NCBI RefSeq assembly: GCF_003334335.1
Contig: NZ_QOWQ01000025.1
Reading direction: 5' to 3' (one strand)
DNA: 64,000 nucleotides
Source: Escherichia coli
GTDB taxonomy: Bacteria > Pseudomonadota > Gammaproteobacteria > Enterobacterales > Enterobacteriaceae
The stretch's first letter is position 1; every line of letters begins with the position of its first letter. This document shows, one piece after another, positions 12,845 to 40,195 of the stretch. Under the pieces are notes generated by a model. The model made no database searches. It saw only the letters and a list, made by a program, of their open reading frames with translations, and was not told where the DNA came from. Made by a program: the position numbers and the translations under genes.

Positions 12845-14206
12845 ATGTTTAAACCGGAACTCCTTTCCCCGGCGGGAACGCTGAAAAATATGCGTTACGC
12901 TTTCGCTTATGGCGCAGATGCTGTTTATGCGGGCCAGCCGCGTTATTCCCTGCGTGTGCGCAACAACGAATTCAACCACGAAAATCTTCAGCTCGGCATC
13001 AATGAAGCCCACGCGCTGGGGAAAAAGTTTTATGTCGTGGTCAACATTGCACCGCACAACGCCAAGCTGAAAACCTTTATCCGTGACCTGAAACCGGTGG
13101 TGGAAATGGGGCCGGATGCGCTGATTATGTCCGATCCAGGGCTGATTATGCTGGTGCGTGAGCACTTCCCTGAAATGCCGATCCACCTTTCGGTGCAGGC
13201 TAACGCCGTGAACTGGGCGACGGTGAAATTCTGGCAGCAAATGGGCCTGACCCGCGTGATCCTCTCTCGCGAGCTGTCGCTGGAAGAGATTGAAGAGATC
13301 CGCAATCAGGTGCCGGATATGGAGATCGAGATCTTCGTTCACGGCGCGCTGTGCATGGCCTACTCCGGTCGCTGCCTGCTCTCTGGCTATATCAACAAGC
13401 GCGACCCGAACCAGGGCACCTGCACCAACGCCTGCCGCTGGGAGTACAACGTCCAGGAAGGGAAAGAAGATGATGTTGGCAACATCGTACACAAGTACGA
13501 GCCGATTCCGGTGCAAAATGTTGAGCCGACGCTGGGTATCGGCGCACCAACCGACAAAGTGTTTATGATCGAAGAGGCCCAGCGTCCGGGCGAGTATATG
13601 ACCGCGTTTGAAGATGAGCACGGCACTTACATCATGAACTCGAAAGATCTGCGCGCCATCGCCCATGTAGAACGCCTGACCAAAATGGGCGTGCATTCGC
13701 TGAAAATCGAAGGTCGTACCAAATCTTTCTACTATTGTGCACGCACCGCACAGGTTTACCGCAAAGCTATCGATGACGCCGCTGCGGGAAAACCGTTCGA
13801 TACCAGCCTGCTGGAAACTCTGGAAGGTCTGGCGCATCGTGGCTATACCGAAGGTTTCCTGCGTCGTCATACTCACGACGATTATCAGAACTACGAATAC
13901 GGTTATTCAGTTTCTGACCGCCAGCAGTTTGTTGGTGAGTTTACCGGTGAGCGCAAGGGGGACCTCGCGGCGGTAGCGGTGAAAAATAAATTCTCCGTTG
14001 GCGACAGCCTTGAGCTGATGACGCCGCAAGGCAACATTAATTTTACCCTTGAGCACATGGAAAACGCCAAAGGCGAAGCTATGCCGATAGCACCAGGCGA
14101 TGGTTATACTGTGTGGCTCCCGGTCCCGCAGGATCTTGAGCTCAATTACGCGCTGCTGATGCGTAATTTCTCCGGGGAAACCACGCGTAATCCCCACGGT
14201 AAGTGA
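12845..14206 (+). CDS. yegQ: U32-family peptidase YegQ (453 aa)
   Basis: 453-aa ORF; conserved Cys-rich U32 motifs (CMAYSGRCLLSGY, CTNACRWEY). Confidence 0.93.
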   Translation: MFKPELLSPAGTLKNMRYAFAYGADAVYAGQPRYSLRVRNNEFNHENLQLGINEAHALGKKFYVVVNIAPHNAKLKTFIRDLKPVVEMGPDALIMSDPGLIMLVREHFPEMPIHLSVQANAVNWATVKFWQQMGLTRVILSRELSLEEIEEIRNQVPDMEIEIFVHGALCMAYSGRCLLSGYINKRDPNQGTCTNACRWEYNVQEGKEDDVGNIVHKYEPIPVQNVEPTLGIGAPTDKVFMIEEAQRPGEYMTAFEDEHGTYIMNSKDLRAIAHVERLTKMGVHSLKIEGRTKSFYYCARTAQVYRKAIDDAAAGKPFDTSLLETLEGLAHRGYTEGFLRRHTHDDYQNYEYGYSVSDRQQFVGEFTGERKGDLAAVAVKNKFSVGDSLELMTPQGNINFTLEHMENAKGEAMPIAPGDGYTVWLPVPQDLELNYALLMRNFSGETTRNPHGK

Positions 14207-14260: not shown

Positions 14261-14290
14261 GCTGCATTTATTAAGGTTATCATCCGTTTC

Positions 14291-14377
14291 GCTGAAAAAC
14301 ATAACCCATAAAATGCTAGCTGTACCAGGAACCACCTCCTTAGCCTGTGTAATCTCCCTTACACGGGCTTATTTTTT
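14291..14377 (+). ncRNA. cyaR: CyaR (RyeE) Hfq-dependent sRNA
   Basis: GCTGAAAAACATAACCCATAAAATGCTAGCTGTACCAGGAACCACCTCCTTAGCCTGTGTAATCTCCCTTACACGGGCTTATTTTTT matches the known CyaR sequence, including the terminator hairpin and U-tail. Confidence 0.9.
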
Positions 14378-14378
14378 A
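14351..14378. repeat. attL core (AATCTCCCTTACACGGGCTTATTTTTTA), overlapping the cyaR terminator
   Basis: Identical 28-mer is repeated at 48032..48059. Confidence 0.85.
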
Positions 14379-14440
14379 CGTACAATAAATTGAAATAAAA
14401 GGATTTATTTCTGGTCACGTCCACACATTGACCACATCGA

Positions 14441-14466
14441 CAAAAAAGCCCCTCGACTGAGGGGCT
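14441..14466 (-). terminator. Rho-independent terminator downstream of ogr
   Basis: Stem AGCCCCTC / GAGGGGCT with loop GACT, followed on the minus strand by TTTTTTG. Confidence 0.6.
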
Positions 14467-14478
14467 TCCTGTTTGTAA

Positions 14479-14697
14479 TTACATCCACATAATTTGCTGC
14501 CCTGACGGCAACGGGTGCGGTCTTACGGCGTGGACTTCTCCCGGCTTCACGATGTATCGCTGTACCGACTCATAAGTGATGAACGTGGCGCTGCAATTCA
14601 CGTTCTGACACTGGTGATAACGCTCTTTTGTCGTGTCAGTGATATAGCGGCTTGTACGCGCATGTGCGGCATGCTGGCATAAAGGACAATGAAACAT
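14479..14697 (-). CDS. ogr: Late-gene transcriptional activator Ogr (72 aa, zinc finger)
   Basis: MFHCPLCQHAAHARTSRYITDTTKERYHQCQNVNCSATF...; ORF 14479..14760 trimmed to the P2 Ogr start. Confidence 0.9.
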   Translation of the reverse strand: MFHCPLCQHAAHARTSRYITDTTKERYHQCQNVNCSATFITYESVQRYIVKPGEVHAVRPHPLPSGQQIMWM

Positions 14698-14778
14698 CGC
14701 GAGCACCTCTTCCGGTTTTGTTGATGTTGCCATTTTAGTTAATTTATCCTTATAAAACAAACAGATAAATAAAACACA

Positions 14779-15942
14779 TCACTCATCATCTTCTGTTTCG
14801 TACTCCACATCAGAAAGCCTTACCTCAAGCTCCAAAGACGTCGTGAAGCCGCTATTATTCAGAAAATGTGTCACCTTAGTGATTGTCCAGTCCTGCTCGT
14901 CTATGACGCGCTTAAAGCCTGACACTTTAACCGGTGTTTCCGTGTAAATATCTGCCCGACCGGTAGCCAGGCTGATGGAGAACTCCGCGACGCCCCGTTG
15001 CAGTTTGTCCCACTTAGCCTGAGCGGCGCGCATGGCCTGCGCTTTTGTGGCATATACCGTGGTCAGGGCAAAAACGTTGTCAGCCTCACCGGCCATGTAT
15101 TCACCTTCGCGCGCTTCCGGTACTTTTGGCGCTTTCTTCTGCGTGACTGGTTTCGCTTTCGGGTGCTCCAGTGCGCGCAGGTGTTTCTCTTTCTTTTTGC
15201 GCTTCAGTTTTACCTTCTGCTTTTGTGGCTTCGGGTCTTTGGTGTGTAACCACTTTGCCGTTACGCCGGTATAGGCTCCACGGTCAGCAATCGCAAAATG
15301 ATGGCGGTCGCCGTCGCTGCGGGTGATGGTAATCTGCGGGATTTTTTTACCGCTGGCCGTCACCCCCTGCCCCGCTTTGAGAAACAGCAGTTTTCCCATT
15401 TTTACCGACACCTCGCCGCCGTTGCGTTCAGCAAGGCGGGTCAGGAATTTTGCATCAGACTCCTGCGACTGGTCGATGTGCGGGATTTTAATTCCGGCCA
15501 GTGACGGAGCGACACTGGCTTCCAGCCTGTTACGGGAGGCTATCGCCTCAACAATCGCACCGAGCGTGGTGTCATGCCAGGAGCCTTCCCGGCGGGAATT
15601 GAGCGTCCCGCGGAAATCTGCACTCCGGGCGCGGATGGTGACCACATCCGGCGCGCCCCGGTGTTCAACCTCATCAACGGTGAATTTCCCTTTGCATACC
15701 AGGGCAAAACCTTTCCAGCCGATATACACCGTCAGGACAGCGCCACGAACCGGCAGCCCGACCTGCCCGTCGGCATCGTTCAGTTCAATATCAAGCTGGT
15801 CAGCTTCAAAGCCCCGGTTATCCGTCAGAGTCATGCTCATCAGACGGTCGCTGATATTGCCGGTAATATCCCTGCTGTCGAGCATCAGCATGTAATCCGG
15901 CGTCAGCGTACTGCCTGCATCAAATGTCAGCGCATCCAGCAT
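14779..15942 (-). CDS. D: P2 gpD-like tail protein (387 aa)
   Basis: Position and length match P2 gpD. Confidence 0.9.
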   Translation of the reverse strand: MLDALTFDAGSTLTPDYMLMLDSRDITGNISDRLMSMTLTDNRGFEADQLDIELNDADGQVGLPVRGAVLTVYIGWKGFALVCKGKFTVDEVEHRGAPDVVTIRARSADFRGTLNSRREGSWHDTTLGAIVEAIASRNRLEASVAPSLAGIKIPHIDQSQESDAKFLTRLAERNGGEVSVKMGKLLFLKAGQGVTASGKKIPQITITRSDGDRHHFAIADRGAYTGVTAKWLHTKDPKPQKQKVKLKRKKKEKHLRALEHPKAKPVTQKKAPKVPEAREGEYMAGEADNVFALTTVYATKAQAMRAAQAKWDKLQRGVAEFSISLATGRADIYTETPVKVSGFKRVIDEQDWTITKVTHFLNNSGFTTSLELEVRLSDVEYETEDDE

Positions 15943-16421
15943 TATCCCGCCCCCATCATACCTGTGAATCTGGTCGCCAGACTGCCGGCCTTACCGATGA
16001 GCGATTCCGCCTGTTTACCAATATCGCCATAAAGCGCGGCCAGTGATTCATCAACGCGGGTGAGCGACAGCGTAAAATCAATTTTCCGGGGTGTGCCGTC
16101 TGCAAAGAAAATACTCCCTGTTTCACTCACCCTGCTGATGACATACATACCGTAAATCATGCCGGTGCCATCCAGCAACGGCCACGCCCGGCCTTCCTCT
16201 GCCATCAGCCTGAGCGTGGTCATCGTCAGCTTCCCGCCGGTCAGTTCGGGATAAAGCACACCGGCAAGCGTGATGTTTTCCTCGCCCACACCGAGAAACT
16301 GAAGGGCATCCCGTTTACCGATACGGGAATTTGACGGCCAGCGATAATCTGATTCACGCTGCATGGTCTGGTGTGGCAGCGTCTGGCGCATAAAAACAAA
16401 CATACCTAACGCGAGCATCAT
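15942..16421 (-). CDS. U: P2 gpU-like tail protein (159 aa)
   Basis: Position and length match P2 gpU. Confidence 0.9.
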   Translation of the reverse strand: MMLALGMFVFMRQTLPHQTMQRESDYRWPSNSRIGKRDALQFLGVGEENITLAGVLYPELTGGKLTMTTLRLMAEEGRAWPLLDGTGMIYGMYVISRVSETGSIFFADGTPRKIDFTLSLTRVDESLAALYGDIGKQAESLIGKAGSLATRFTGMMGAG

Positions 16422-16435
16422 TTTTCGTCACCTCC

Positions 16436-18883
16436 TTAACCGTCATGCATCATGCTGGCACGGGCGCGCGCACGTTTATCCCGCTCGTATTTTTCGAGCG
16501 CATCCTGTAACTGGCGGTCGAGCTGAGTCCCCGGCGCAGTACCGCCCGTCAGACTGATGTGATATTCGTTTTTACTCTGGTCCACATAAGAGCGGCCAGC
16601 CGGTGCCGTAACCGGCTGATAAGCCTGATAACCTGCATAAGAGCTGGTCGCCGGAATATAACCACCGGTGCCATACGTGGCGGCATGAGTTCTGGCGGCG
16701 GTCTGGTCAAGTGTGTCTGACTCTTTGTTGATAACACCGAGTTTTTCCAGTACCCAGTCAATACCGCTGCGCAGTTTGTTGAACGCATTAAGCGGCAGCA
16801 TCAGCGCGTCAGCCAGTGCCTGCCCGAACATGACGCCCGTGTCACGGCAACGGTTCAGGGTGTCCCGGGTGGCTTTGACCGGGGCAATCAGGTTTTTAAA
16901 CCACTGCCACGCGGCCTGTAACTTTTCACCCAGCCAGTTAAACAGCGGCTTAAGTGGCGTGAACAGTTCCCCCACCGGCGCAAATGCCGCTTTCAGCCCT
17001 TCAACCACACCGCCAAAGAATGCGCTGACAGGCTCCCAGTATTTACGGATAAGCAACGCCCCGGCGACAATGGCAGCCACCACGGCCACAACCGGCCAGC
17101 TAATCGCACTGATGGCCGTCATAACGGCACTACCAACCGTCGTGAAGATTGCCCCCATTGCGCCTGCTGCCGCGATAATGGCATTGATGCCGGTGATAAC
17201 CGGCCAGGCTACGAGGCCAATGGCACCGATGACACCAATCAGCGCCAGTGCACCACCGACAATGATGCCGATGGTTGACGCCAGTGATTTGTTTTTCTGT
17301 ATCCAGCCGTCGAGTTTTAACACATACTTTGTGGCCGTCTGCGTGAGCTTACGCAGTGCGCCTTCCTGCTGGTCAAACAGGTCAGTCCCCACCGCCTCAT
17401 AAGCGGACTGAAACTCCTTAAAGTCACCGCCGAGGTTGTCCTGCATGATATTTACCAGCTCAGCGGTCTTCCCGTCTGAGGCTTTAAACGCAGCGGTCAG
17501 TTTGTCCAGCTTTCCAGTTGAGGCGGCAGTCATCAGCACGGCGGCGGCTGAGCTGGCCTCCTCCCCGAAAATAGTTTTCATGTATTCAGCCTGCTGGGCA
17601 GTACCGAGCCGGTTTTTCTCAAAACTGGCCTGCATTTCTTTCAGAATGGTAAATACTGGTCGGGTGTTTCCCTTGCTGTCTGAGGTTTTCACACCAAGCT
17701 CTTTGAGTGCATCCCATGCTTTTCCCGTCGGTGCCTGCAGGCGGCTTAACACGGCACGGCTTCCCGTCCCCGCCATTGAACCAGTAATTTTTGCGTCATG
17801 CAGCGCCCCGACCATTGCGGCGGTTTCTTCAATGCTGACACCGGCATTTTTTGCCACTGGTGCGGCATAGGTCAGCGCATCGCTCATACCGTCAAAATCG
17901 GCGGCGGTTTTGTTCATCGTCATGGAGAGAACATCCCCGATATGAGCGACCTTATCGTTTGAAAGCTGAAAGGCGGATTTCATCCCCATCAGCAGGGCGG
18001 CGTTTTCTTCCATCGTGCGACGGTTCGCCAGCGCCATATTCAGCGTGACCGGCGTTGCCGCCTGAATGGCATCAACATCCCCACCGGCTTTCGCAATAAT
18101 AATCTGCGCACCGGCTGCATCATCTGCCGAGGCTGCGGTATTGTCGCCGAGCTGGCGCGCCTGCTTGCGTAGTGCAGCCATTTCGGCGGAGTCTTTTGCC
18201 ACACCGAGCACGGCCTGCAATTCTGAGTTTTTCTGCGCAAACTCATAACCGGGCATCAGCAACTTAACTCCGGCCATCGTTCCCGCAGCAGCAATCCCCA
18301 CACCGGCAGCGCCCACTGAGGCCATATTTCCGGCCAGTTCCTTTCCGGCCTGATAACGCTGTTTGACTGCGTTAAGTTTTGCCTGTTGTGCGCTGACACG
18401 CGCCAGTGCATCGCGCTGACGGTTAAGTTGTGCGGTGGTTTCACTGATACGGTTTTTCAGCCCCTGCTCATCATGTGCAAGATTGCGGGTATTAATTCCC
18501 ACAGCGGCCAGTTCCCGCTGCTGGCGTTTAACAGAATCCGTCAGGCGGTTATATTTCGCCTGTAAGTCCTCCGCCGCACGCTTTGCGGATTCCAGCACTT
18601 TCGCCTGAGCACGGGTTGGACGTTCGGTGTTTTTAAACTGTGTGGCAAGGGCTTCGGCCTCCTGCCGTGCCTTTTCAAGTGCATGACCAGTCACGGCGAG
18701 CTGTGCACTGGTCTTGCGGAATCCCTCAATACGGGATGCGTGACCGTTCAGCTCGCGCAGTGATTTTTGTGTTTCCCGGATATCCCCCGACAGCGACCTG
18801 CTCGCTGTACGGATGGATTTAAACGGGCGGGATGCCTGGTCAACAGCCCTGAGCAATACCTGTAATTTTACATTGTTACTCAT
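16436..18883 (-). CDS. T: Tail tape measure protein gpT (815 aa)
   Basis: 815-aa Ala/Gly-rich coiled-coil protein with hydrophobic segments; length matches P2 gpT. Confidence 0.9.
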   Translation of the reverse strand: MSNNVKLQVLLRAVDQASRPFKSIRTASRSLSGDIRETQKSLRELNGHASRIEGFRKTSAQLAVTGHALEKARQEAEALATQFKNTERPTRAQAKVLESAKRAAEDLQAKYNRLTDSVKRQQRELAAVGINTRNLAHDEQGLKNRISETTAQLNRQRDALARVSAQQAKLNAVKQRYQAGKELAGNMASVGAAGVGIAAAGTMAGVKLLMPGYEFAQKNSELQAVLGVAKDSAEMAALRKQARQLGDNTAASADDAAGAQIIIAKAGGDVDAIQAATPVTLNMALANRRTMEENAALLMGMKSAFQLSNDKVAHIGDVLSMTMNKTAADFDGMSDALTYAAPVAKNAGVSIEETAAMVGALHDAKITGSMAGTGSRAVLSRLQAPTGKAWDALKELGVKTSDSKGNTRPVFTILKEMQASFEKNRLGTAQQAEYMKTIFGEEASSAAAVLMTAASTGKLDKLTAAFKASDGKTAELVNIMQDNLGGDFKEFQSAYEAVGTDLFDQQEGALRKLTQTATKYVLKLDGWIQKNKSLASTIGIIVGGALALIGVIGAIGLVAWPVITGINAIIAAAGAMGAIFTTVGSAVMTAISAISWPVVAVVAAIVAGALLIRKYWEPVSAFFGGVVEGLKAAFAPVGELFTPLKPLFNWLGEKLQAAWQWFKNLIAPVKATRDTLNRCRDTGVMFGQALADALMLPLNAFNKLRSGIDWVLEKLGVINKESDTLDQTAARTHAATYGTGGYIPATSSYAGYQAYQPVTAPAGRSYVDQSKNEYHISLTGGTAPGTQLDRQLQDALEKYERDKRARARASMMHDG

Positions 18884-19303
18884 TCGTGTTTCCGCTTCGC
18901 CGGAGTGCCTTTTCGCGCCATGTGATGAGTTCGGTCAGGCTCATGGGATACAGTTCTGATGGCGGCCAGTGAAATATCACTGCCACATCCGCCATCAGGT
19001 CATCGACCGAGAGATTTTTCGGAAACGTTACTGCACCGAGTTCGGCGACAAAAAACCGACCACCTTACCGGCCAGCGCCACAAGGTCAGGCAGTTCCAGC
19101 GCGGCGACCTCCTGCTCGGTCAGCATCGGTGCCGTCATGCGCGGCAGTACCTTAATCAGTGCATCGACTTCGGAGTTTGCAACCGCAGCCAGACTGACAC
19201 CGCGCAGCGTCCCCGCACTGGGTTTCATCAGCGTGACCTGTTCGATAACCTGCTCACCACGCTTGACCGGATTGTCCAGGGTAATCACATTTTCTTTGTT
19301 CAT
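18876..19303 (-). CDS. E: Tail assembly chaperone gpE (19028..19303) and frameshift product gpE+E' (to 18876)
   Basis: E is a 91-aa ORF. The slippery heptamer TTTTTTG (19049..19055, minus strand) lies in codons G-F-L near the E 3' end. Manual -1 frame reading continues to a TAA at 18876..18878, overlapping the T start, as in P2. Confidence 0.75.
19049..19055 (-). other. Programmed -1 ribosomal frameshift slippery site (T6G) for E/E'
   Basis: GGTTTTTTG on the minus strand, conserved in position relative to P2-type E/E' tail chaperones. Confidence 0.7.
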
Positions 19304-19359
19304 GGTTTTCTCACTTCTGAATCAGGGTTAACCGGTCAGCCAGGCTGACCGGATGAAAA

Positions 19360-19878
19360 TCACAGGCCGATATTTCGGCGGTGTTGCTCCAGCCGGTCGA
19401 CGCCGTTCACCTTCTCAATCATGTTGATGGTGTCGATTTCGACCAGCTCCTTACCGTCCATCGTCAGCCGGAAATAGGTGCAGACCACGGAGATTTTCGA
19501 CTCGGTGTCTTCTCCCTGTTTACCCTCGCCGGTGTCGATTTCTTTCTGACGTCCACGCATGACCACTTCGACGGCCACCGTTTCGCCGGTATCGTCGCGC
19601 TGGTAAGAACCGGCAAAACGAATCGGCACGGCATCCACACCGGTTGCGGCGTAAAGCTCCCAGATAACCGAATCCGGGAAGCCACCGAGCGACCACTCCA
19701 TTGACAGCGCATCGTCATCAAGGCCGAGGTCTACCGGTGCGCTTCCGTTCATCCCCGCACCGCGATAGTTTTCGAGCTTACGGGTCAGTTTTGGCAGCGT
19801 GACGGACTTTGCAACGCCCTGATAGCTGTAGCCGTTCAGAAAGACGTTCATTAACTTGAGTTTGCGCGGCATTGCCAT
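19360..19878 (-). CDS. FII: Tail tube protein gpFII (172 aa)
   Basis: Position and length match P2 FII. Confidence 0.9.
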   Translation of the reverse strand: MAMPRKLKLMNVFLNGYSYQGVAKSVTLPKLTRKLENYRGAGMNGSAPVDLGLDDDALSMEWSLGGFPDSVIWELYAATGVDAVPIRFAGSYQRDDTGETVAVEVVMRGRQKEIDTGEGKQGEDTESKISVVCTYFRLTMDGKELVEIDTINMIEKVNGVDRLEQHRRNIGL

Positions 19879-19890
19879 CGGTCAGGCTCC

Positions 19891-21081
19891 TTAATTGCTG
19901 TTAACCGAAGTGACCAGATTTGCCAGGTATTTATCGGTAATACGCTGGCGCAGGGTCAGGTTTTCAAGAGGAGGCACCGGGGTATAGTCGTAGTCGATAT
20001 ACAGTTTTCCGGCCTTGAGGGTTTCCGCATCGTTGGATTCTTCGCTGAACCAGCAGGTCGCATCCACGATATAGCCGTTTGTTTTCAGCTCACGGAATTT
20101 GGCATTGATGCCGTCAACGATGTCGCGAATCAGCGTTGCGGTGATGGGCTTGTCCACCGCCCACATGTGCGCCTCAGCCATCGTGTCGGCCAGCACCTGC
20201 GCGGTGCGGGTGTAGTTTTCAAAGAGGAACAGCGGGTCATCCGAGCAGGTACGGTTACCCCAGAAGCGGAAACCGTCACGGCGAATCAGCGTTGTGACAC
20301 CTGACTCATTAAGCAGGTCAGCATCGGTGCCGGACTCCTGCAAATCCCAGAATACAGAGGCACTGATGCCGGTAACACCGTTTACCCCGACATTGGACAG
20401 CGTTTTATGCCATCCCTGCTCCTGGTCGATTCTGGCACGCAACCCCAGCGCACGGGCGGTGGCATACGCGGTGGCGGTGGTACTGGTGACCGTATCCCAT
20501 GCGAGGAAATCCGGCCAGATGACCATCAGCTCACGCTGGCTGAAATTCTGGCGGTAGGCTTTCACCTCGGAAATGGTCTTACAGCCCCATGCGCTGATAT
20601 ATCCGAAAGCACGCAGCTTCTGACAGACGGATGCCAGTGCAACAGCCACCTCTTTGGTATCCAGTCCCGGCACACCGAGAATACGCGGTTTAACACCGGT
20701 TACCGACTCCGCCGCCAGCAGGGCTTTCAGTCCGGTGTACTGACCGTTTTCGTCGGTGGTGCCGATGATATTGGAAACGGTCTGCGCGAGTTTCGTTTCC
20801 TCGTCGTCGCCGGTGCCGTCTTCCACACGCACGACAACGGTGACCGGTTTTGACTGGTCGGCGATGGCCTGCAACGATGCCGCCAGCGTGCCTTTTTTAC
20901 CGGCCTTTGCAATTGCGCTCTGTACATTGGTTATCAGCACCGGTTTATTGAGGGGGAAGGTTTCCGCATCCGCATCGCTGGCCGTGCAGACCATGCCGAC
21001 AATGGCCGTGGATACGGTGGAAATGACGCGGGTGCCGTCGTTAATCTCCAGCACCTGCACGCCGTGATGATAGTCACTCAT
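19891..21081 (-). CDS. FI: Contractile tail sheath protein gpFI (396 aa)
   Basis: Position and length match P2 FI. Confidence 0.9.
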   Translation of the reverse strand: MSDYHHGVQVLEINDGTRVISTVSTAIVGMVCTASDADAETFPLNKPVLITNVQSAIAKAGKKGTLAASLQAIADQSKPVTVVVRVEDGTGDDEETKLAQTVSNIIGTTDENGQYTGLKALLAAESVTGVKPRILGVPGLDTKEVAVALASVCQKLRAFGYISAWGCKTISEVKAYRQNFSQRELMVIWPDFLAWDTVTSTTATAYATARALGLRARIDQEQGWHKTLSNVGVNGVTGISASVFWDLQESGTDADLLNESGVTTLIRRDGFRFWGNRTCSDDPLFLFENYTRTAQVLADTMAEAHMWAVDKPITATLIRDIVDGINAKFRELKTNGYIVDATCWFSEESNDAETLKAGKLYIDYDYTPVPPLENLTLRQRITDKYLANLVTSVNSN

Positions 21082-21185
21082 CCGTTTAACTCCGTGGTTA
21101 ATGGGTGCAACTATTTTCTGTTGTGCAGAGTATGAGGCGCTATTTGACCTGGCTGGTCAGTGGATGAAACAACAGATAAAGAAAA

Positions 21186-21204
21186 GGCGGGCAATTCGCC
21201 CGCC
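21186..21204 (-). terminator. GC-rich stem-loop, candidate terminator upstream of FI
   Basis: GGCGGGC / loop aattc / GCCCGCC, flanked by an A-run on plus (U-run on minus). Confidence 0.4.
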
Positions 21205-21481
21205 TGTCCTGATTTGTACTCACTCATTTTCCGCCTGACAATTTACATAGCCCAAATGCTATCAAATCTGACAGCCTGCTTTGAGCGAGTAACTAAATTT
21301 GATTTAAATAAATTATAAGGATTCAAATGTTATTGGCACAAATTCCTGAGATGCAAACAGTCACACTAAGTGTTCAAACAAGGTTCTGGACTACGGCTAA
21401 CTCATCAGTTAAGTTTGTTTCCGACCTGTCGTTTCTTCCCTGTCAGGAGTCACTTTTCGTGTTATTTTTTAAGGATGTTTT

Positions 21482-22261
21482 ATGAGTAATGAAACACAAT
21501 CATTCCTTAGTCAATTGCTAATATCCATAATCTCTATATCTTTAGGGTCATTTCTTTTTGCTGGAATCCTAGAGAGCTACAAAAAAGACCAAGATCTTCA
21601 GGAGGAGTTTATAAAGGATTACTTTAGGCCAATGATGAAATTACAAAGTTCTTGTTCATCTTCACATAATGAACTATTTCTAAAGTATGGAGAGTTATCT
21701 GCTTCTTATCAGCTCATGTATAATGAAATAGTACATATGGCAATGAGCCCTGATTCAGAATTAGGACAACATTATGAAGTTCTCCCGATATCTCTTATTA
21801 AAACAAATGAAGAGTTAAAAAAAAGAGTTGAAGATCTTGAAATGACGGTAAAAAAATGCAATGTCGATTTATTCCTTAAGTACGAAGAGCTTGCATTAGT
21901 TACTGGTTCATATCCAGAGTTTAAGAGGCTGGCGAAAAAACACACTGACACAATTAACTCCATCTATTCAGAAAGACAAAAAAAAGCAAAGGGAAATGCA
22001 AAAAATATAGACCCTGATCAACTAATTCCATTGATGCGGAAATATATTGCCATGGATCCACACACCAATGTAAACAAATCCATGCTTGCCAGTGAAATTG
22101 ATAACATATCTAAACTAACAACACAGCATAATTTGATAATGGCAGAATATGAGGAGTTAATTTTCAAAGAAGATAATGATTTATTTATAACTCTTCATGA
22201 TCTTTATGCAATCAAAATTAGTGAAAAGTATTCAGGTGGATTTATCAGTTGGATATTTTAA
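21482..22261 (+). CDS. Cargo island 1 (Z/fun position): hypothetical 259-aa protein, N-terminal TM helix plus helical domain
   Basis: AT-rich ORF on the opposite strand to the flanking tail genes, with an RBS (AAGGA) 7 nt upstream. Hydrophobic segment LLISIISISLGSFLFAGIL near the N-terminus. Sits where P2 carries Z/fun. Confidence 0.75.
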   Translation: MSNETQSFLSQLLISIISISLGSFLFAGILESYKKDQDLQEEFIKDYFRPMMKLQSSCSSSHNELFLKYGELSASYQLMYNEIVHMAMSPDSELGQHYEVLPISLIKTNEELKKRVEDLEMTVKKCNVDLFLKYEELALVTGSYPEFKRLAKKHTDTINSIYSERQKKAKGNAKNIDPDQLIPLMRKYIAMDPHTNVNKSMLASEIDNISKLTTQHNLIMAEYEELIFKEDNDLFITLHDLYAIKISEKYSGGFISWIF

Positions 22262-22339
22262 AACATGATAACTCATCAGATACAATGCTAACTATGTAGA
22301 ACGCGTAAATCTGTGAAGGTTACCAATGTGTTAGGTAAT

Positions 22340-22363
22340 GTCCGCTCCTTGCACAGAGCGGAC
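22340..22363. terminator. Stem-loop between cargo 1 and gene G, possible bidirectional terminator
   Basis: GTCCGCTC / loop cttgcaca / GAGCGGAC perfect 8-bp stem; the flanks are only weakly U-rich. Confidence 0.35.
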
Positions 22364-22412
22364 TGTCAGATTAGGCTTTACTCTGTGCTATAGATATGTC
22401 AGCTCATACAAC

Positions 22413-31561: not shown

Positions 31562-32059
31562 TTAAGCCGGTACGCCGCCAGCGGTACGCCAGACTGTGAC
31601 CAGTTTTTCCAGTGAATGCTCACGCTGACCGTAACCGGCACCCGGCAGGGACGCCCAGATATTGCGACAGCGTGAAATGGCGCGCTCAATGCGCCCCGCC
31701 CGGATGTCATCCAGTGCACCGCGTTCGCGGATCAACTGAATGGCAAGTCTGTCCTGTGACAACGGACTGAAATCCGGCAGGGCAAGCTGTTTGCGGTAGT
31801 GCGGCCAGAACAGGTAAAGCTGCTGATAGCGACCGGAAGCCGTGGACTTTTCACCGCGACGGTTAAATACCTTCGCCGGTCGGCCATGCGCGAACGGGTG
31901 GTCACTGTAGTCGGTGAAAATTTCCGGCTTCCCGTCCAGTCCGGTGACTATCACGTCATAGCCCCGGTTTTTCGTCAGCGGATGATTCGCCGTCCCTTCG
32001 GACACGGCCAGCATGTCGAGAAAGGCGGCGATATTCTGATGCGTGTTAATTACCGGCAT
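31562..32059 (-). CDS. K: Endolysin gpK (165 aa)
   Basis: Position and length match the P2 K lysozyme. Confidence 0.9.
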   Translation of the reverse strand: MPVINTHQNIAAFLDMLAVSEGTANHPLTKNRGYDVIVTGLDGKPEIFTDYSDHPFAHGRPAKVFNRRGEKSTASGRYQQLYLFWPHYRKQLALPDFSPLSQDRLAIQLIRERGALDDIRAGRIERAISRCRNIWASLPGAGYGQREHSLEKLVTVWRTAGGVPA

Positions 32060-32340
32060 TACTGTTTCCCCCTGCCCTTAAAGCGGCGCTGAATGGCAAT
32101 CTCAATCACCTGATAACCGGCGATACCCAGCATGGAGCCAATGCCGCACACCGCAGGCAGTGACAGGTCAGGAAACTGCACCAGAACAACACCGGCAACC
32201 ATTGAGACAAAACCACCGAGCAACATGCGCCCGATAAACAGACGCGGGGTGATGGGTTCACCACCGGCAAGCACCTTGCCGACAACAATCAGCACCCCAA
32301 TCATGAAAAGCGACAGGACGCTTTTTTCTTCTGCTGTCAT
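32059..32340 (-). CDS. Y: Holin gpY (93 aa)
   Basis: Small protein with TM helices at the P2 Y position. Confidence 0.88.
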   Translation of the reverse strand: MTAEEKSVLSLFMIGVLIVVGKVLAGGEPITPRLFIGRMLLGGFVSMVAGVVLVQFPDLSLPAVCGIGSMLGIAGYQVIEIAIQRRFKGRGKQ

Positions 32341-32343
32341 GCG

Positions 32344-32547
32344 TTACTCCCACAGATTGACAGTTTCAGCCACGGGCGCGGTCTGAACGTCGGGCAGTTC
32401 GACGGCGGTGCCGTGTGGCAGCACCGCACCCAGTTCAGCCAGTCCCGGATTTGCGGCGAGCACGGTCTCAACCACGCCCTCAGAGCGCCCGTAATACCGG
32501 ACACAAATGGCGTCGAGCGTGTCGCCCTGTAGCGCAAAGGTCTTCAT
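32344..32547 (-). CDS. X: Tail protein gpX (67 aa, LysM-like)
   Basis: ORF 32344..32616 trimmed to MKTFALQGDTLD..., giving the P2 X length. Confidence 0.8.
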   Translation of the reverse strand: MKTFALQGDTLDAICVRYYGRSEGVVETVLAANPGLAELGAVLPHGTAVELPDVQTAPVAETVNLWE

Positions 32548-33056
32548 CAGATTTGACTCACGATGCAGCGCGGCTTGTCCTGGATGCGCGCCACTGCCCA
32601 GCGCATATCCCGCCACAGCTCATCAATGGTGCTGTCAATGCTGTCGGCCTTCTTGTCTCCTTTCGCACTGGCATCCACGCCGCGGTAACGCTCATAAAGC
32701 GACGCGGTCGCCATCGCACACACGGCGCGCTCGTAGTAAAAAACTTTGATACTTTCACCGTCGATGTCGTCCGCCGGAACGTCCGCCAGACGCGTAAAAC
32801 CGGCGGCAATTTTCTGTTCGCGGTACTCGTACAGCTCCGCATTTGTTTCCGCCATGCCTGACTTGATGGCCTCACGCAGACGGGCGGGGGCGACGGTCTG
32901 CTCAAGGCGCATACGTTCCCGGACGCGCTTCGGGTCGATATCGGGAAAAAAGAACGTGTTTTTAATCACCGGCTCGTCGCCTGCCGGTTGCGGGATGACC
33001 ACCGTACCCTCACCGGACACGGGAGCCTCCTTTCGCGGAATAATCAGCGTCATCAT
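32547..33056 (-). CDS. L: Capsid completion protein gpL (169 aa)
   Basis: ORF trimmed to MMTLIIPRKEAPVSG..., giving the P2 L length. Confidence 0.85.
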   Translation of the reverse strand: MMTLIIPRKEAPVSGEGTVVIPQPAGDEPVIKNTFFFPDIDPKRVRERMRLEQTVAPARLREAIKSGMAETNAELYEYREQKIAAGFTRLADVPADDIDGESIKVFYYERAVCAMATASLYERYRGVDASAKGDKKADSIDSTIDELWRDMRWAVARIQDKPRCIVSQI

Positions 33057-33155
33057 GACTACCTCTGAAAAGTCGGGCGGTGGACGCCGGTACAGCGTCA
33101 GGTGATTCACCCTCACTGACCGGCGTGCCGCCCTGGCGCGGGGCGCATTCGGTTG

Positions 33156-33899
33156 TTAACTGGCTTTCTTTTTCGGGCGTCCACGTTTTGCCGGTGTCAC
33201 GCTCCGGGTCTTACGCGGGGCGCGGGTGGCCGCTTTGGGCTGCGGCTCCGGCTTCGGTTTCAGCTCCCGCTCCAGTCGTTCAATCTCTTTTTTGACGCCT
33301 GCCTGACAGTCGAGCTGTGTCGCACGTTGCAGGTGAGCCAGCGCACCGGCGGCATCACCAGCGTCACGCAGAAACAGACCGGTGATTTTGTGCAGCTTTG
33401 CGCGCACTTCATCAGGCATGTCAGCCGTGGCGGTCAGTTCAATGGTCTCCGTCAGCAGGCGGGTATCCACAGACTCACCGGCAGCGTGAGCACGCATGGC
33501 CGCGAGCGCCACCTCCTCGGTGAACATGTACGGCGGGGGGCGGCGGTGTTTACCCGGCATGGTCAGACCGTACTTCAGGGCATAACGGGCAATCTCCAGC
33601 GCACCGGCAATATCGCCGGTATCCAGACGCCACAGCATGACCGTCATCAGAATGTCATCCTGTGCACCTTTGCCCTGCTCCAGCACGCCGTTCACCCACG
33701 GCAACCAGAACGGCAGCAGTTCGCGTTTTTTCGCGGCCTTCAGCTCTTTTGAATAAATCGCTTTCAGTGTGCGCTGGTCTGCGGCCAGCTTGACCAGCAT
33801 CTGCTCATAGACAGTTGCATGTCGCAGCGGGGCGGCTTCCCGCTGCGCGGTCATCGCTGCCGAGACCCGCATCATGTGGCGCTGTGCGGGACTCGTCAT
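33156..33899 (-). CDS. M: Terminase small (endonuclease) subunit gpM (247 aa)
   Basis: Position and length match P2 M. Confidence 0.9.
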   Translation of the reverse strand: MTSPAQRHMMRVSAAMTAQREAAPLRHATVYEQMLVKLAADQRTLKAIYSKELKAAKKRELLPFWLPWVNGVLEQGKGAQDDILMTVMLWRLDTGDIAGALEIARYALKYGLTMPGKHRRPPPYMFTEEVALAAMRAHAAGESVDTRLLTETIELTATADMPDEVRAKLHKITGLFLRDAGDAAGALAHLQRATQLDCQAGVKKEIERLERELKPKPEPQPKAATRAPRKTRSVTPAKRGRPKKKAS

Positions 33900-33902
33900 C
33901 GG

Positions 33903-34976
33903 TCACGCTCCCGGCTCTGCGGTCGCCTTAGCCGGTGTGGAGAAATCACCGACCTTAATTTTTTCCACCAGACAACCGGCGGCGTAGTCTTCCACCACGT
34001 AATCAATGTTCATTGACTCGTAGTTCTCCACGCGGTCGAGTTTCGGGTTTTCCACAATCACGCGGCGATGGCTGTCATCCATGTAGTAGATGGACAGGTT
34101 TTCCAGCTTCGTGATGAGCATCGCATCCGCCGGAAAGTACGGGACGCGTACCGCCGGCAGGTTACCGATGCGTTTCTGGCTGATGATAACGTCAGCGGCC
34201 AGCATTTCGCTGCTGTCCTGCTCCTTGTTGACGATGGGGAAATACTTGTCCGCCAGTAGCTGACGTCCCACAATCACCACAAGGTCAGGGTCTTCCTGAT
34301 ACCACGGCTCAATCAGGTTGTTGGTCGCATCCATCACCAGTGCATCGAGGCTGGCATAATCACCGCCCTTACCCACGCGGATGACCTCAGAGGTTGTGTG
34401 ACCTTCCTCGTCAGTAACCTTGCTCATCACGCGCGCCGGGGCTTCATTGCGGTATTTCTGCAGCCAGCCGACCGCCACATCCTGCAGCATCGGATTGCTG
34501 CTGCGGTCAGAGGTTTCGGCACGCTTCACACCGTTAAAACCGGCCATGATGAAATCAAGGGACTGGCGTTTGATAATGGCGTTACGGACACGGAGCTGGA
34601 AATCCTGATAACGCGCCCACAGGTCAAGCGTTTTGTAGCGGATATAAAAATCGAAGTTAATCTGGTCGCATTCGTACTTGTTTGACGCCAGCTTCGAGAA
34701 GTCCTTCGGCTGACGCTCGGTGCCACCGGCGGTGTCGGTGGTGCTGGCGATGGAGCCGGTGACACCGATACCAATTTTTTCCCCTTTCATTTCGCTGACC
34801 GGCACAATGTTGATGCGGGTCAGAAAGTCAGAGGACTCCTGCATGGTGTTCATCAGGGTCTGGGTGACCGACGGTTCAACGGTGAATTTTTTCGACACAT
34901 CACCGGCGTCGATGCCGTTCAGTTCGGCAACACGGGACAGGTAGGCATTAAATTTAAAGCGGGTTTCCTGGCGCAT
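33903..34976 (-). CDS. N: Major capsid protein gpN (357 aa)
   Basis: Position and length match P2 N. Confidence 0.92.
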   Translation of the reverse strand: MRQETRFKFNAYLSRVAELNGIDAGDVSKKFTVEPSVTQTLMNTMQESSDFLTRINIVPVSEMKGEKIGIGVTGSIASTTDTAGGTERQPKDFSKLASNKYECDQINFDFYIRYKTLDLWARYQDFQLRVRNAIIKRQSLDFIMAGFNGVKRAETSDRSSNPMLQDVAVGWLQKYRNEAPARVMSKVTDEEGHTTSEVIRVGKGGDYASLDALVMDATNNLIEPWYQEDPDLVVIVGRQLLADKYFPIVNKEQDSSEMLAADVIISQKRIGNLPAVRVPYFPADAMLITKLENLSIYYMDDSHRRVIVENPKLDRVENYESMNIDYVVEDYAAGCLVEKIKVGDFSTPAKATAEPGA

Positions 34977-35034
34977 AGTTTTTCCTGAAATTAAGGGTTA
35001 ATCGTGAAGGTTTTCCCGGACTGACTGACGCCGG

Positions 35035-35889
35035 TCAGCAGTTCGTCATCAGGGCGTCACCGCCACCACCGGTGGCCTTGCTGCGGCGCTGCTGGGTCAG
35101 ACTTTCGGTGTGGTCGAGACTGTTTTTCAGGCGGGTGAATGCCTGGCTGGTTTCATCCGCCCTGTCAGTCACCTCCTGCTTAAGTGCGGAAAAGGCGGTT
35201 TCCATCTCAGCGAGGCGCTGCTCAGTGGCGCTCAGTTTTTCCTGCACATGTTCAGCGACAGCGGTCACCGCTTCATGCACATCATTCAGACGGGCGTCAT
35301 CGCTCGCCTGTTTGCGGCCAAAAATGGATTTCACCTTTTCGGTCAGGGCGGTGAACACGGTTTCAGGCAGGTCTTCAAATTCCAGCTCAACAGGCGTTGC
35401 CACTGAAATCAGGTTTTCAGGGCTTAATTTGAAGCGGTTCAGAGGGTTATGTTTTGCCGTGCGGCAGAATTCCAGGTATTCCGTGCCGAGGCTTGCCGGG
35501 TCATCTGTGACAGCCAGCCCCACCAGATAACATTTGCCGGTGTTGGCAAAGTTCGGCTGAATTTCCATTGAGGTGTAGACCTTCTGCGCGGCCTTGTTCA
35601 TCGCGATAAGGTCATCGGTCGGGGTGATTTTCGCAAACAGCGCCCATTTGCCTTTCAGCGCCGAATCATCGTCAATCTTTTCGGCCTTCAGTTCGGCCAC
35701 ATCGCCATAACGCTTAAAAATACCGTCAGGCAGGATGCCGCGCAGATGTTCCAGGTTAATGCGGCAACCATAGACTCGCGGGTCAAAGGTTTCGGCCATT
35801 TCCTGAATATCCTGCGCACTGATGACACGCCCGTCACAGGTGTCACCCTCAACGCCGATACGAAAGAATTTTGAGACTTTTTTTGCCAT
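35035..35889 (-). CDS. O: Capsid scaffolding protein/protease gpO (284 aa)
   Basis: ORF trimmed to MAKKVSKFFRIGV..., giving the P2 O length. Confidence 0.9.
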   Translation of the reverse strand: MAKKVSKFFRIGVEGDTCDGRVISAQDIQEMAETFDPRVYGCRINLEHLRGILPDGIFKRYGDVAELKAEKIDDDSALKGKWALFAKITPTDDLIAMNKAAQKVYTSMEIQPNFANTGKCYLVGLAVTDDPASLGTEYLEFCRTAKHNPLNRFKLSPENLISVATPVELEFEDLPETVFTALTEKVKSIFGRKQASDDARLNDVHEAVTAVAEHVQEKLSATEQRLAEMETAFSALKQEVTDRADETSQAFTRLKNSLDHTESLTQQRRSKATGGGGDALMTNC

Positions 35890-36062
35890 TGTCAGGAGTC
35901 CTGAATAGTGATTAGAGGAGTCACATGTCGGCATCAGTTTCCCGACGATGCGCATCCTCCGCCATCAGTCCCGGATGGCTTATCACTGACACAACAGCAC
36001 CTTAGCGAATCGCGGGGCGCGACTCAGTAGCCTTGCCGTGTATTCATCACGGCGAGGTATTC
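35890..36062. promoter_or_regulatory. Divergent late promoter region (P_O / P_P) of the P2-like capsid and terminase operons
   Basis: Intergenic region between divergently transcribed O and P, as in P2 where Ogr-dependent promoters sit here. No individual element confidently assigned. Confidence 0.45.
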
Positions 36063-37835
36063 ATGACCATCACCACAGACACCACTCTTTTACACGACCC
36101 GCGTCGTCAGGCGGCGCTGCTGTACTGGCAGGGGTTTTCCGTGCCGCAGATTGCCGCCATGTTGCAGATGAAACGCCCGACGGTGCAGAGCTGGAAACAG
36201 CGCGACGGCTGGGACAGCGTTGCCCCCATCAGCCGTGTCGAAATGAGTCTGGAAGCGCGACTGACCCAGCTCATCATCAAACCGCAGAAAACCGGCGGTG
36301 ACTTCAAGGAAATTGACCTGCTGGGACGCCAGATTGAACGACTGGCGCGGGTCAACCGCTACAGTCAGACCGGCAACGAGGCAGACCTTAATCCGAACGT
36401 CGCTAACCGCAACAAAGGCGGGCGTCGCAAACCGAAAAAGAATTTTTTCAGTGACGAAGCCATCGAAAAGCTGGAGCAGATTTTCTTTGAGCAGTCTTTC
36501 GACTATCAGTTGCACTGGTATCGCGCCGGGCTTGAGCACCGCATCCGCGATATCCTGAAATCCCGCCAGATTGGCGCAACGTTTTATTTTTCCCGCGAGG
36601 CGCTGCTGCGCGCCCTGAAAACCGGCCATAACCAGATTTTTCTGTCGGCCAGTAAAACGCAGGCGTATGTGTTCCGCGAATACATCATCGCCTTTGCCCG
36701 TCTGGTTGACGTTGACCTGACCGGTGACCCGATTGTCCTGGGCAATAACGGCGCAAAACTAATTTTTCTCGGCACCAACTCCAACACCGCACAGAGCCAT
36801 AACGGCGACCTGTACGTCGACGAGATTTTCTGGATCCCGAATTTTCAGGTACTGCGTAAGGTGGCATCAGGTATGGCCTCACAGAGTCACCTGCGTTCGA
36901 CCTATTTCTCCACCCCGTCCACGCTGGCGCACGACGCCTACCCGTTCTGGTCAGGTGAACTGTTCAACCGGGGACGCGCCAGCGCCGCCGAACGCGTGGA
37001 AATCGACGTCAGTCATAACGCCCTTGCCGGTGGGCTTCTCTGTGCGGACGGCCAGTGGCGGCAGATTGTCACCATTGAGGACGCCCTGAAAGGTGGCTGC
37101 ACGCTGTTCGACATTGAGCAGCTCAAACGTGAAAACAGCGCCGACGATTTTAAAAACCTGTTCATGTGTGAATTTGTTGACGACAAGGCGTCGGTGTTCC
37201 CGTTCGAGGAGCTGCAACGCTGCATGGTCGACACGCTGGAAGAATGGGAAGACTATGCGCCGTTTGCCGCGAATCCGTTCGGCTCCCGCCCGGTATGGAT
37301 TGGTTACGACCCGTCACACCGTGGCGACAGCGCCGGATGCGTGGTACTGGCACCGCCGGTGGTGGCCGGTGGCAAATTCAGAATACTTGAGCGCCACCAG
37401 TGGAAAGGCATGGACTTTGCCACCCAGGCGGAATCCATCCGCAAACTCACCGAAAAATACAACGTCGAATACATCGGTATTGATGCCACCGGCCTTGGTG
37501 TCGGCGTGTTCCAGCTCGTGCGCTCGTTCTATCCCGCCGCGCGCGACATCCGCTACACGCCGGAAATGAAAACCGCAATGGTGCTCAAGGCAAAAGACGT
37601 CATCCGCCGTGGCTGTCTGGAATATGACGTCAGCGCCACCGACATCACCAGCTCGTTTATGGCTATCCGCAAGACCATGACCAGCAGCGGACGCAGTGCC
37701 ACCTATGAGGCCAGCCGCAGCGAGGAAGCCAGCCACGCCGACCTCGCCTGGGCGACCATGCACGCCCTGTTAAATGAGCCACTCACCGCCGGTATCAGCA
37801 CCCCGCTGACATCCACCATTCTGGAGTTTTACTGA
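36063..37835 (+). CDS. P: Terminase large (ATPase) subunit gpP (590 aa)
   Basis: ORF trimmed to the ATG at 36063 (MTITTDTTLL...), giving the P2 P length. Confidence 0.92.
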   Translation: MTITTDTTLLHDPRRQAALLYWQGFSVPQIAAMLQMKRPTVQSWKQRDGWDSVAPISRVEMSLEARLTQLIIKPQKTGGDFKEIDLLGRQIERLARVNRYSQTGNEADLNPNVANRNKGGRRKPKKNFFSDEAIEKLEQIFFEQSFDYQLHWYRAGLEHRIRDILKSRQIGATFYFSREALLRALKTGHNQIFLSASKTQAYVFREYIIAFARLVDVDLTGDPIVLGNNGAKLIFLGTNSNTAQSHNGDLYVDEIFWIPNFQVLRKVASGMASQSHLRSTYFSTPSTLAHDAYPFWSGELFNRGRASAAERVEIDVSHNALAGGLLCADGQWRQIVTIEDALKGGCTLFDIEQLKRENSADDFKNLFMCEFVDDKASVFPFEELQRCMVDTLEEWEDYAPFAANPFGSRPVWIGYDPSHRGDSAGCVVLAPPVVAGGKFRILERHQWKGMDFATQAESIRKLTEKYNVEYIGIDATGLGVGVFQLVRSFYPAARDIRYTPEMKTAMVLKAKDVIRRGCLEYDVSATDITSSFMAIRKTMTSSGRSATYEASRSEEASHADLAWATMHALLNEPLTAGISTPLTSTILEFY

Positions 37836-38869
37836 TGAGCAAGAAAAAAGGGAAAACACCGCAACCTGCGGCAAAAACAATCACCGCCAGCGCCCCGAAA
37901 ATGGAGGCATTCACCTTTGGTGAGCCGGTGCCGGTACTCGACCGCCGTGACATTCTGGATTATGTCGAGTGCATCAGTAACGGCAGATGGTATGAGCCGC
38001 CGGTCAGCTTTACCGGTCTGGCAAAAAGCCTGCGTGCTGCCGTGCATCACAGTTCACCGATTTACGTCAAACGTAATATTCTGGCTTCAACGTTTATCCC
38101 GCACCCGTGGCTGTCCCAGCAGGATTTCAGCCGCTTTGTGCTGGATTTTCTGGTGTTCGGTAATGCGTTTCTGGAAAAGCGTTACAGCACCACCGGTAAG
38201 GTCATCAGACTGGAAACCTCACCAGCAAAATATACCCGTCGTGGCGTGGAAGAGGATGTTTACTGGTGGGTGCCGTCCTTCAACGAGCCGACAGCCTTCG
38301 CGCCCGGCTCCGTGTTTCACCTGCTGGAGCCGGATATTAATCAGGAGCTGTACGGCCTGCCGGAATATCTCAGCGCCCTTAACTCTGCCTGGCTGAATGA
38401 GTCGGCCACGCTGTTCCGCCGCAAGTATTACGAAAATGGCGCACATGCCGGATACATCATGTACGTCACCGATGCCGTGCAGGATCGCAACGATATCGAA
38501 ATGCTTCGCGAAAACATGGTCAAGTCGAAAGGCCGCAACAACTTTAAAAACCTGTTTCTCTATGCCCCACAGGGGAAAGCCGACGGCATTAAAATTATCC
38601 CCCTCAGTGAAGTGGCGACGAAGGACGATTTTTTTAATATCAAAAAAGCCAGCGCCGCTGACCTGCTGGACGCGCACCGCATCCCCTTTCAGTTGATGGG
38701 TGGCAAGCCGGAGAACGTCGGGTCGCTGGGTGATATTGAGAAAGTGGCAAAGGTCTTTGTCCGCAATGAGCTTATCCCGTTACAGGACAGGATCCGCGAG
38801 ATAAACGGCTGGCTCGGTCAGGAGGTCATCCGCTTTAAAAACTACTCACTGGACACTGACAACGACTGA
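37835..38869 (+). CDS. Q: Portal protein gpQ (344 aa)
   Basis: Position and length match P2 Q. Confidence 0.92.
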   Translation: MSKKKGKTPQPAAKTITASAPKMEAFTFGEPVPVLDRRDILDYVECISNGRWYEPPVSFTGLAKSLRAAVHHSSPIYVKRNILASTFIPHPWLSQQDFSRFVLDFLVFGNAFLEKRYSTTGKVIRLETSPAKYTRRGVEEDVYWWVPSFNEPTAFAPGSVFHLLEPDINQELYGLPEYLSALNSAWLNESATLFRRKYYENGAHAGYIMYVTDAVQDRNDIEMLRENMVKSKGRNNFKNLFLYAPQGKADGIKIIPLSEVATKDDFFNIKKASAADLLDAHRIPFQLMGGKPENVGSLGDIEKVAKVFVRNELIPLQDRIREINGWLGQEVIRFKNYSLDTDND

Positions 38870-38873
38870 ACAT

Positions 38874-38896
38874 CGCCGCCTGCGGGCGGCTTTTTT
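38874..38896 (+). terminator. Rho-independent terminator after Q
   Basis: Stem GCCGCC / GGCGGC with loop TGCG, followed by TTTTTT. Confidence 0.7.
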
Positions 38897-39144
38897 ACAC
38901 CCCGTCATCCCCCCTCACACGCTCACCACCGCACAAAACACCCCGCAGACACACAACGCCTCAACGGGCAGACTAAGCGCCGTCACGACGCGCTGAGACG
39001 CTGAAAAAATACAATCAGCACCACCGTCAGCGCGCAGTGCTTTCCCCGCCTCGCCCGCCCGCTTCATGGGTCGGTTTTAATGCAGTTGCATAAACATAGT
39101 ACAAGCGCGCCAGTCAAGCCTAGCGCACATACATAGAGAACGTA

Positions 39145-39181: not shown

Positions 39182-39192
39182 CATATTAAACA

Positions 39193-40194: not shown

Positions 40195-40195
40195 A

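Follow-up and report, generated by a model that had tools for sequence, protein, structure and literature searches.

A complete P2 prophage occupies the classical P2 attachment site at the 3' end of the small RNA gene cyaR (ryeE) in the 64-kb stretch of Escherichia coli DNA analyzed here (the window). The window contains an exact 28-bp direct repeat (AATCTCCCTTACACGGGCTTATTTTTTA) in exactly two copies, both on the + strand (14351-14378 and 48032-48059), and we are almost certain that these copies are the pair of recombinant junctions produced by P2 integration at the cyaR 3' end, which served as attB. No evidence against this P2-integration reading was found. The preferred P2 site in E. coli is named locI. 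The features of the locus are collected in Table 1.

To define the overlap between the repeat and cyaR, the sRNA gene and its terminator were located in the window. Rfam analysis matched CyaR (RF00112) at 14289-14374 over its full length (model positions 1-85; 100.7 bits compared with a gathering score of 47; E 6e-19), and the position downstream of yegQ is the one that cyaR has in annotated E. coli genomes. The gene was delimited from GCTGAAAA to the last T of the T run; its 87 nt correspond to the length of cyaR in K-12. The intrinsic terminator is formed by pairing of 14342-14352 with 14359-14369 around a loop at 14353-14358; UAUUUUUU follows the stem, and the T run spans 14372-14377. Folding of 14335-14378 gave -15.9 kcal/mol (z = -7.4), and a terminator scan and the Rfam consensus structure concurred. 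By these stem coordinates, the repeat starts at base 10 of the 11-nt 5' arm and so takes in the last two bases of that arm; the loop, the complete 3' arm and the U tract follow, and a single additional base closes it. The 27-bp P2 core is the final 27 nt of the 87-nt CyaR, both ending at 14377. The exact repeat, the Rfam match and the fold thus confirmed the position of the repeat given in the original prediction, together with its claim that the repeat begins inside the CyaR terminator hairpin and includes the U tract. No CyaR-terminator-like hairpin was found by folding at the int-side copy, because the 5' arm is absent there.

Beyond the repeat, the left copy continues with CGTACAA (phage) and the right copy with TGCATAA (host). 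The two copies share an A (14378 and 48059), and the first difference between them, C versus T, falls 2 nt beyond the last U of CyaR. The prediction had described two differing bases here, cg versus tg; the dinucleotides were read correctly, but the G is common to both, so that only the first base differs. Its labels for the two junctions also had to be exchanged: in P2 usage, attR denotes the ogr-side junction beside cyaR and attL the int-side one.

Table 1. Features of the cyaR locus and the P2 prophage in the window. Coordinates are window positions; P2 features are those of the P2 record.
Feature	Position	Strand	Basis and remarks
yegQ/trhP, host gene upstream of cyaR	12845..14206	+	ORF; yegQ/trhP annotated at the homologous position in E. 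coli genomes
cyaR (ryeE) sRNA gene, 87 nt	14291..14377	+	Rfam RF00112; GCTGAAAA to last T of T run
CyaR intrinsic terminator hairpin	14342..14369	+	11-bp stem with one U.G pair; 6-nt loop UCUCCC
cyaR-side att core copy, ogr junction	14351..14378		Exact repeat; 27-bp P2 core plus one shared base
IHF site of P arm (predicted)	14376..14409		P2 protein_bind feature 24324-24357, gap-free alignment
P2 (Peduovirus) prophage body, 33.65 kb	14379..48031		Order ogr-D-U-T...H...N-O/P-Q, cargo, A, cox/C-int
P-arm Int arm-type sites (predicted)	14413..14440		GTCCACA at 14419-14425 and TGACCACA at 14429-14436; P2 feature 24293-24320
ogr/F operon terminator	14445..14468	-	P2 regulatory feature 24265-24288
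ogr, late-gene activator, first prophage gene after cyaR	14479..14697	-	Matches P2 ogr 24036-24254
int, P2-type tyrosine integrase, transcribed towards the core	46939..47952	+	98% DNA identity to P2 int; NCBIfam tyrosine recombinase families
P' arm, predicted Int arm-type repeats TGTCCACA	47918..48015		Repeats at 47925-47932 and 47936-47943; P2 feature 24470-24496
Cox-binding region (predicted)	~47942-48015		Transferred from P2 feature 24399-24472 via gap-free alignment
int-side att core copy	48032..48059		Exact repeat
Host flank (B'), putative decayed P2-type P arm	48060..48119		One arm-type repeat TGACCACA kept, at 48094-48101
yegR, host gene downstream of the site	48217..48534	-	ORF; yegR annotated at the matching unoccupied-site position in strain E2865

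The DNA between the two copies was compared with known phages. P2, L-413C, R18C, Wphi and relatives covered 80-84% of positions 14379-38000 at 96-97% identity, with the gaps corresponding to cargo loci, and the int-C-cox region was 98% identical to P2. The ogr product matched NCBIfam NF007241 (176 bits compared with a cutoff of 116; residues 22-93 of ORF 14479-14760). The attP core annotated in the P2 record AF063097 (24356-24382) was identical to window positions 14351-14377 at 27/27 bases. When window positions 47932-48059 were joined to 14379-14480, the product aligned to P2 attP without a gap; recombination of attP with attB inside the core therefore accounts exactly for both junctions, and the repeat is the prophage attachment core that it had been predicted to be. 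The window thus resembles the P2 system in its identical 27-bp core and in the same layout of int, ogr, Int-arm, IHF and Cox sites, and differs from it in its other cargo loci (~80% coverage) and in the extent of the identity between phage and host, which is 28 bp here (host 6 T followed by A) compared with 27 bp in hosts with 7 T. The core may be quoted as 27 bp because identity to attP ends at that length in a 7-T host.

The Int, IHF and Cox sites listed in Table 1 are transfers from the P2 annotation and are sequence-based predictions. The P2 Int system has been described as comprising a core and arm sites (consensus tgTGGaCa), with a simple attB that is identical to the core (PMC3448106). 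A literature search found no published P2 Int cleavage positions; the core itself suggests an overlap of TTACAC(G), lying between the imperfect inverted repeat AATCTCCC / GGGCTTATT. The hairpin of the ogr terminator is also terminator-like on the + strand (14446-14467), ~70 nt downstream of the CyaR terminator. A promoter-like CTTACA-17-TACAAT (14358-14386) across the core and the phage arm was rejected as not meaningful, with one such site in the window compared with 1.4 expected in shuffles.

We also examined the unoccupied form of the site. A synthetic empty site of 400 nt, made by joining the two host flanks, was found at 100% identity over its full length in other E. coli, between yegQ/trhP and yegR. 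Junction probes of 77-87 nt were then counted in 5,426 complete E. coli genomes. The unoccupied arrangement, with cyaR, core and host flank contiguous, was present in 4,187 genomes (~77%); cyaR and core followed by a P2-type arm were present in 1,209 (~22%), K-12 included; and the junction of int arm, core and host flank was present in 660. In K-12, the ogrK remnant occupies the equivalent position in the yegQ-yegR interval: ACGCGTAATACAATG... comes after cyaR, ogrK and a D fragment come next, and the remnant terminates in a partial second core (TACACGGGCTTATTTTTTT). Since the K-12 flank after cyaR is of the phage type (ACGCGTAA), the CyaR studied in K-12 is already in a phage-type context. 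Among species-representative genomes, the exact core was found only at the cyaR end or at P2-type junctions, in Escherichia and several Kluyvera species, and a P2-like arm followed the core in one Kluyvera genome.

In the proposed mechanism, P2 Int, a heterobivalent tyrosine recombinase, would have joined attP to the attB that P2 prefers in the bacterium, the cyaR 3' end, with the strands exchanged at a point of the core that precedes the end of the T run. In the lysogen, the promoter, the seed region and the 5' stem arm of cyaR would be those of the host; from the phage would come the distal terminator, including at minimum the end of its T tract, and all sequence downstream of cyaR; and the original host copy would now reside 33.7 kb away, beside int. 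With identical phage and host cores, cyaR is rebuilt base for base, and the gene is intact because the phage brings its own copy of the cyaR end.

Identical cores hide the point of exchange, and a natural polymorphism in the T run, of 6 or 7 T, was used to reveal the origin of each tract. P2 attP carries 6 T. Unoccupied flanks fall into two main haplotypes, ...TATCCCTGGTCACC with 6 T, which is the type of the window, and ...TATCTCTGGTAACC with 7 T. Unoccupied sites with the TCTCTGGTAACC flank haplotype had 7 T in all three that were fetched (strains Y5, WCHEC020032 and PSJ-14 are unoccupied and of the 7-T type), and the 7-T type accounted for about 10 of 60 evenly spaced rows of the unoccupied-site matches (roughly a fifth). 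Analysis of 122 IMG/VR junctions containing the exact 27-mer revealed 6 T at 42 of 43 cyaR-side junctions; on the int side, 7 T was found at 19 of 21 junctions of the TCTCTGGTAACC haplotype and 6 T at 37 of 37 of the other main haplotype, these IMG/VR junctions, like the RefSeq genomes, being phylogenetically non-independent samples. In three IMG/VR contigs containing both junctions, the tract had 6 T beside cyaR and 7 T beside int; the complete genome of strain 120899 agreed. K-12 has 6 T at cyaR, and a 7-T tract persists in its partial distal core. Among the 660 int-side junctions of complete genomes, a 7-T probe matched exactly in about 3 of 10 sampled full-length rows. Only one complete genome, HMDUC-17, had 7 T on the cyaR side followed by the phage arm (7 T + ATGCGTAATACAATG); its sequence resembles what a variant attP, or else gene conversion or exchange rightward of the core, would leave. 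With 6 T on the cyaR side and 7 T on the int side, the T tract adjacent to cyaR in lysogens is phage DNA and the host tract has moved to the int side, which places strand exchange 5' of the end of the T run. The marker thus supports the predicted rebuilding of the cyaR 3' end from the copy carried by the phage, and the cyaR tail and downstream flank of K-12 appear, from this pattern, to be phage-derived.

Two other explanations of these observations were weighed. The repeat could be a chance match, or a target-site duplication left by another mobile element, with no site-specific recombination involved. A short direct repeat as such would fit this explanation, but it is vanishingly improbable: no match with three or fewer mismatches was obtained in 100 dinucleotide-preserving shuffles of the window, the repeat is the annotated P2 attP core, its arms rejoin exactly into attP, the P2 integrase gene lies 80 bp from the int-side copy, and a precise empty site exists. 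The difference of 6 and 7 T between junctions could instead have arisen by independent slippage and hold no record of the exchange point. The marker is a homopolymer that can also change in this way, T runs of 6-8 are prone to slippage, and there are exceptions to the pattern, namely an 8-T junction on the cyaR side, 6 T at 2 of 21 int-side junctions of the 7-T haplotype, and the 7 T at cyaR in HMDUC-17. However, 7 T was tightly tied to two flank SNPs (3/3 fetched empty sites and 19/21 int-side junctions). It was seen beside cyaR with a phage arm at 0 of 43 IMG/VR junctions and in one complete genome, compared with about 3 of 10 sampled rows among the 660 int-side junctions. The 7-T tract sorts by junction, unlike the outcome of random slippage, and we consider slippage a very unlikely source of the difference. 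Integration of P2 by recombination within the core is the reading retained for both the repeat and the T tracts.

A separate question is whether the prophage measurably alters the site or efficiency of CyaR termination in this strain, as the original prediction had raised, since the sequence beyond the core is ACGTACAA when the site is occupied and ATGCATAA when it is empty. The DNA immediately downstream of a terminator has been reported to influence its efficiency in vitro. The flanks diverge from the second base after the T run, and readthrough RNA would fold differently, with AUAAGCCC in the host flank able to pair with GGGCUUAU and the phage flank contributing the second terminator-like hairpin at 14446-14467. 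There is also scope for modulation of this leaky terminator: its readthrough in delta-hfq cells was 41% in a double-terminator assay (PMC9765468). Against this, occupied and empty sites agree from the hairpin through the U tract to the base that follows, which leaves the CyaR-coding sequence unchanged; the difference at +2 is a single C/T; a T at +2 is also found in some P2-like phages themselves (ATGCGTAA arms); and K-12, in which CyaR was characterized, already has the phage-type flank. We therefore regard such an effect as improbable and, in this strain, unlikely to matter. Both copies in the window have 6 T, so the prophage leaves all 87 nt of CyaR, hairpin and U tail included, unaltered; judged from the DNA, integration is silent for the CyaR-coding sequence here. 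The swap of 7 T for 6 T in 7-T lineages is a more concrete variable than the difference in flank, and it does not apply to this strain because both of its tracts have 6 T.

Comparison of the host flank with the phage arms pointed to an earlier event at the same site. Homology was evident between the host flank (48060-48119) and the P2 P arm (14379-14454), interrupted by a single ~16-bp gap, and identity to 14406-14454 was 71% over 49 nt; the local alignment scored 22, compared with 7.6 +/- 1.3 (maximum 13.5) for shuffles. The flank with the decayed arm is also present in unoccupied sites, and Escherichia sp. MOD1-EC7003, from a cryptic Escherichia clade, has a more complete relic in which the IHF-site segment is retained. 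Read most simply, these alignments mean that a far older P2-like prophage left its scar at the 'empty' site of E. coli; alternatively, the phage may have acquired host flank. A fossil P2 arm in the host flank would mean that the locus has been in use by P2-like phages since before E. coli diversified. In some lineages (e.g. E. coli E69) the core is followed by an alternative host flank (GTACCACGACTTTC..., T/C-GTACCACGACTTTCATCCTG...) that is unrelated to the fossil arm, and three IMG/VR junctions showed P2-type prophages at the core beside this flank, which fits an attB that requires the core alone. A third AATCTCCCTT copy at 48109 was considered as the remains of a second core and rejected, as it corresponds in the alignment to the fossil arm's decayed ogr terminator and is not conserved in other flank haplotypes (AATCCTCCTT, ATTCCCCCTT). 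A perfect 11-bp inverted repeat (AGCACGATGCC...GGCATCGTGCT; 48122-48154) is located ~60 nt downstream of yegR and lacks a T tract on either strand.

The core and its variants were also sought in other genera and in viral contigs. A degenerate core pattern (AATCTCCCTTNNNNNGGGC) was too loose, matching at least 120 loci of unrelated sequence in viral contigs. A core variant guessed from the Rfam CyaR consensus (AATCTCCCTTGCGCGGGC) gave one viral-contig match, which lacked a T tract and did not resemble an att site; the viral contigs thus yielded no evidence for phages with cores fitted to the cyaR of other genera. Klebsiella phages with a 74%-identical int region were rejected as users of this site, as another terminator-like sequence, without the CyaR core, is found beyond their int. 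One of these sequences, GGCTAACGCACCCGACGGGGCTTTTTTT beyond int in phage ST16-OXA48phi5.4 (2670-2720), suggests that a different RNA or terminator is the target in Klebsiella. In Kluyvera sichuanensis and K. georgiana, the 3' arm of the CyaR terminator was identical to the P2 core and the 5' arm was variable: GCCCGTGTAA pairs perfectly, GCCTGTGTAA of E. coli forms a U.G pair, and GCCCGCGTAA of K. sichuanensis leaves a C.A mismatch. A variable 5' arm with a constant 3' arm may be the footprint of a 3' arm supplied by phage, in a sample that is biased because it was picked by exact core match. A contig of a Collinsella-assigned MAG begins with an E. coli-type cyaR-core-ogr-arm junction and is most likely E. 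coli contamination or mis-binning.

The prophage also carries loci that depart from P2. Between Q/cos and gene A, where P2 has tin/old, a two-gene cargo was found on the - strand (39193-41863). One gene encodes a 555-aa AAA/ABC-type ATPase (PADLOC NsnB, 2e-51, with HEC-03B, PDC-M55A and AriA; PHROG 21420), and its 333-aa partner had no match in Pfam, PHROGs, PADLOC or NCBIfam; we list the pair as a candidate anti-phage system. In strain 120899, this cargo position is taken by a different AAA ATPase. At the P2 Z/fun position, between FI and G, a 259-aa ORF on the + strand (21482-22261), opposite to the tail genes, matched PHROG 7729 (unknown function) and gave no significant Pfam match. Three tandem 132-bp units (24231-24720), 81-87% identical over a 226-nt reference copy, are located inside the ORF of the tail-fibre gene H (22944-25238, - strand). 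In the host DNA, the window opens with a Sib antitoxin RNA (RF00113, 73.9 bits; 43-170), which lies before the mdtABCD-baeSR region, and two 98-aa ORFs (12148-12742) precede yegQ. The yegP-yegQ interval of strain 120899, which corresponds to these ORFs in position, has an annotated ParD antitoxin and RelE/ParE toxin.

The overlap between the P2 core and the cyaR 3' end is already known, and the window is one more instance of it. PMC3603311, citing Wassarman et al. 2001, describes ryeE of E. coli as a previously recognized target of phages, and Table 2 of PMC3032704 places three elements at 'cyaR RNA', namely Wphi2 (P2 type) in strain W, ogr-D' in K-12 and P2*B in strain B. Wphi2 and P2*B share the insertion site of the window prophage with no essential difference. 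No description of which part of cyaR becomes phage-derived was found in the passages of PMC3032704 and PMC3603311 that were consulted. Related arrangements include phage 186 in tRNA-Ile, HP1 in tRNA-Leu, Fels-2 and SopE-phi in ssrA, and Salmonella phages at ryeB/sdsR (PMC3448106, PMC3333887, PMC3603311). As in these cases, the att core lies over the 3' end of a small structured RNA and a replacement copy from the phage preserves the gene; what differs here is the target, an Hfq-dependent sRNA with its intrinsic terminator and U tail inside the core. P2-type integrases mostly use intergenic sites and not tRNA genes (PMC3448106).

Taken together, these data describe a textbook-style case of a temperate phage that targets the 3' end of an sRNA gene with a spare copy, so that the host gene survives. 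For annotation, the prophage ends are fixed to the base and cyaR is intact in this lysogen. The use of the 6T/7T polymorphism to identify the phage-derived part of cyaR goes slightly beyond the literature consulted. The length of the U tail affects Hfq binding and termination of sRNAs. We put forward tentatively, and as an unlikely proposal when taken as a whole, that P2-type lysogeny edits the CyaR tail in 7-T lineages, bringing in the phage 6 T and leaving the host 7 T beside int; that the K-12 allele is phage-rewritten; that CyaR dosage or readthrough could be shifted; and that the empty-site flank is a fossil P2 arm at a locus used before E. coli diversified. The origin of the 6-T or 7-T tract is relevant when CyaR termination or Hfq binding is compared between strains, with a small effect expected. 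If the proposal is true, CyaR dosage or readthrough could differ between lysogens and non-lysogens in 7-T lineages.
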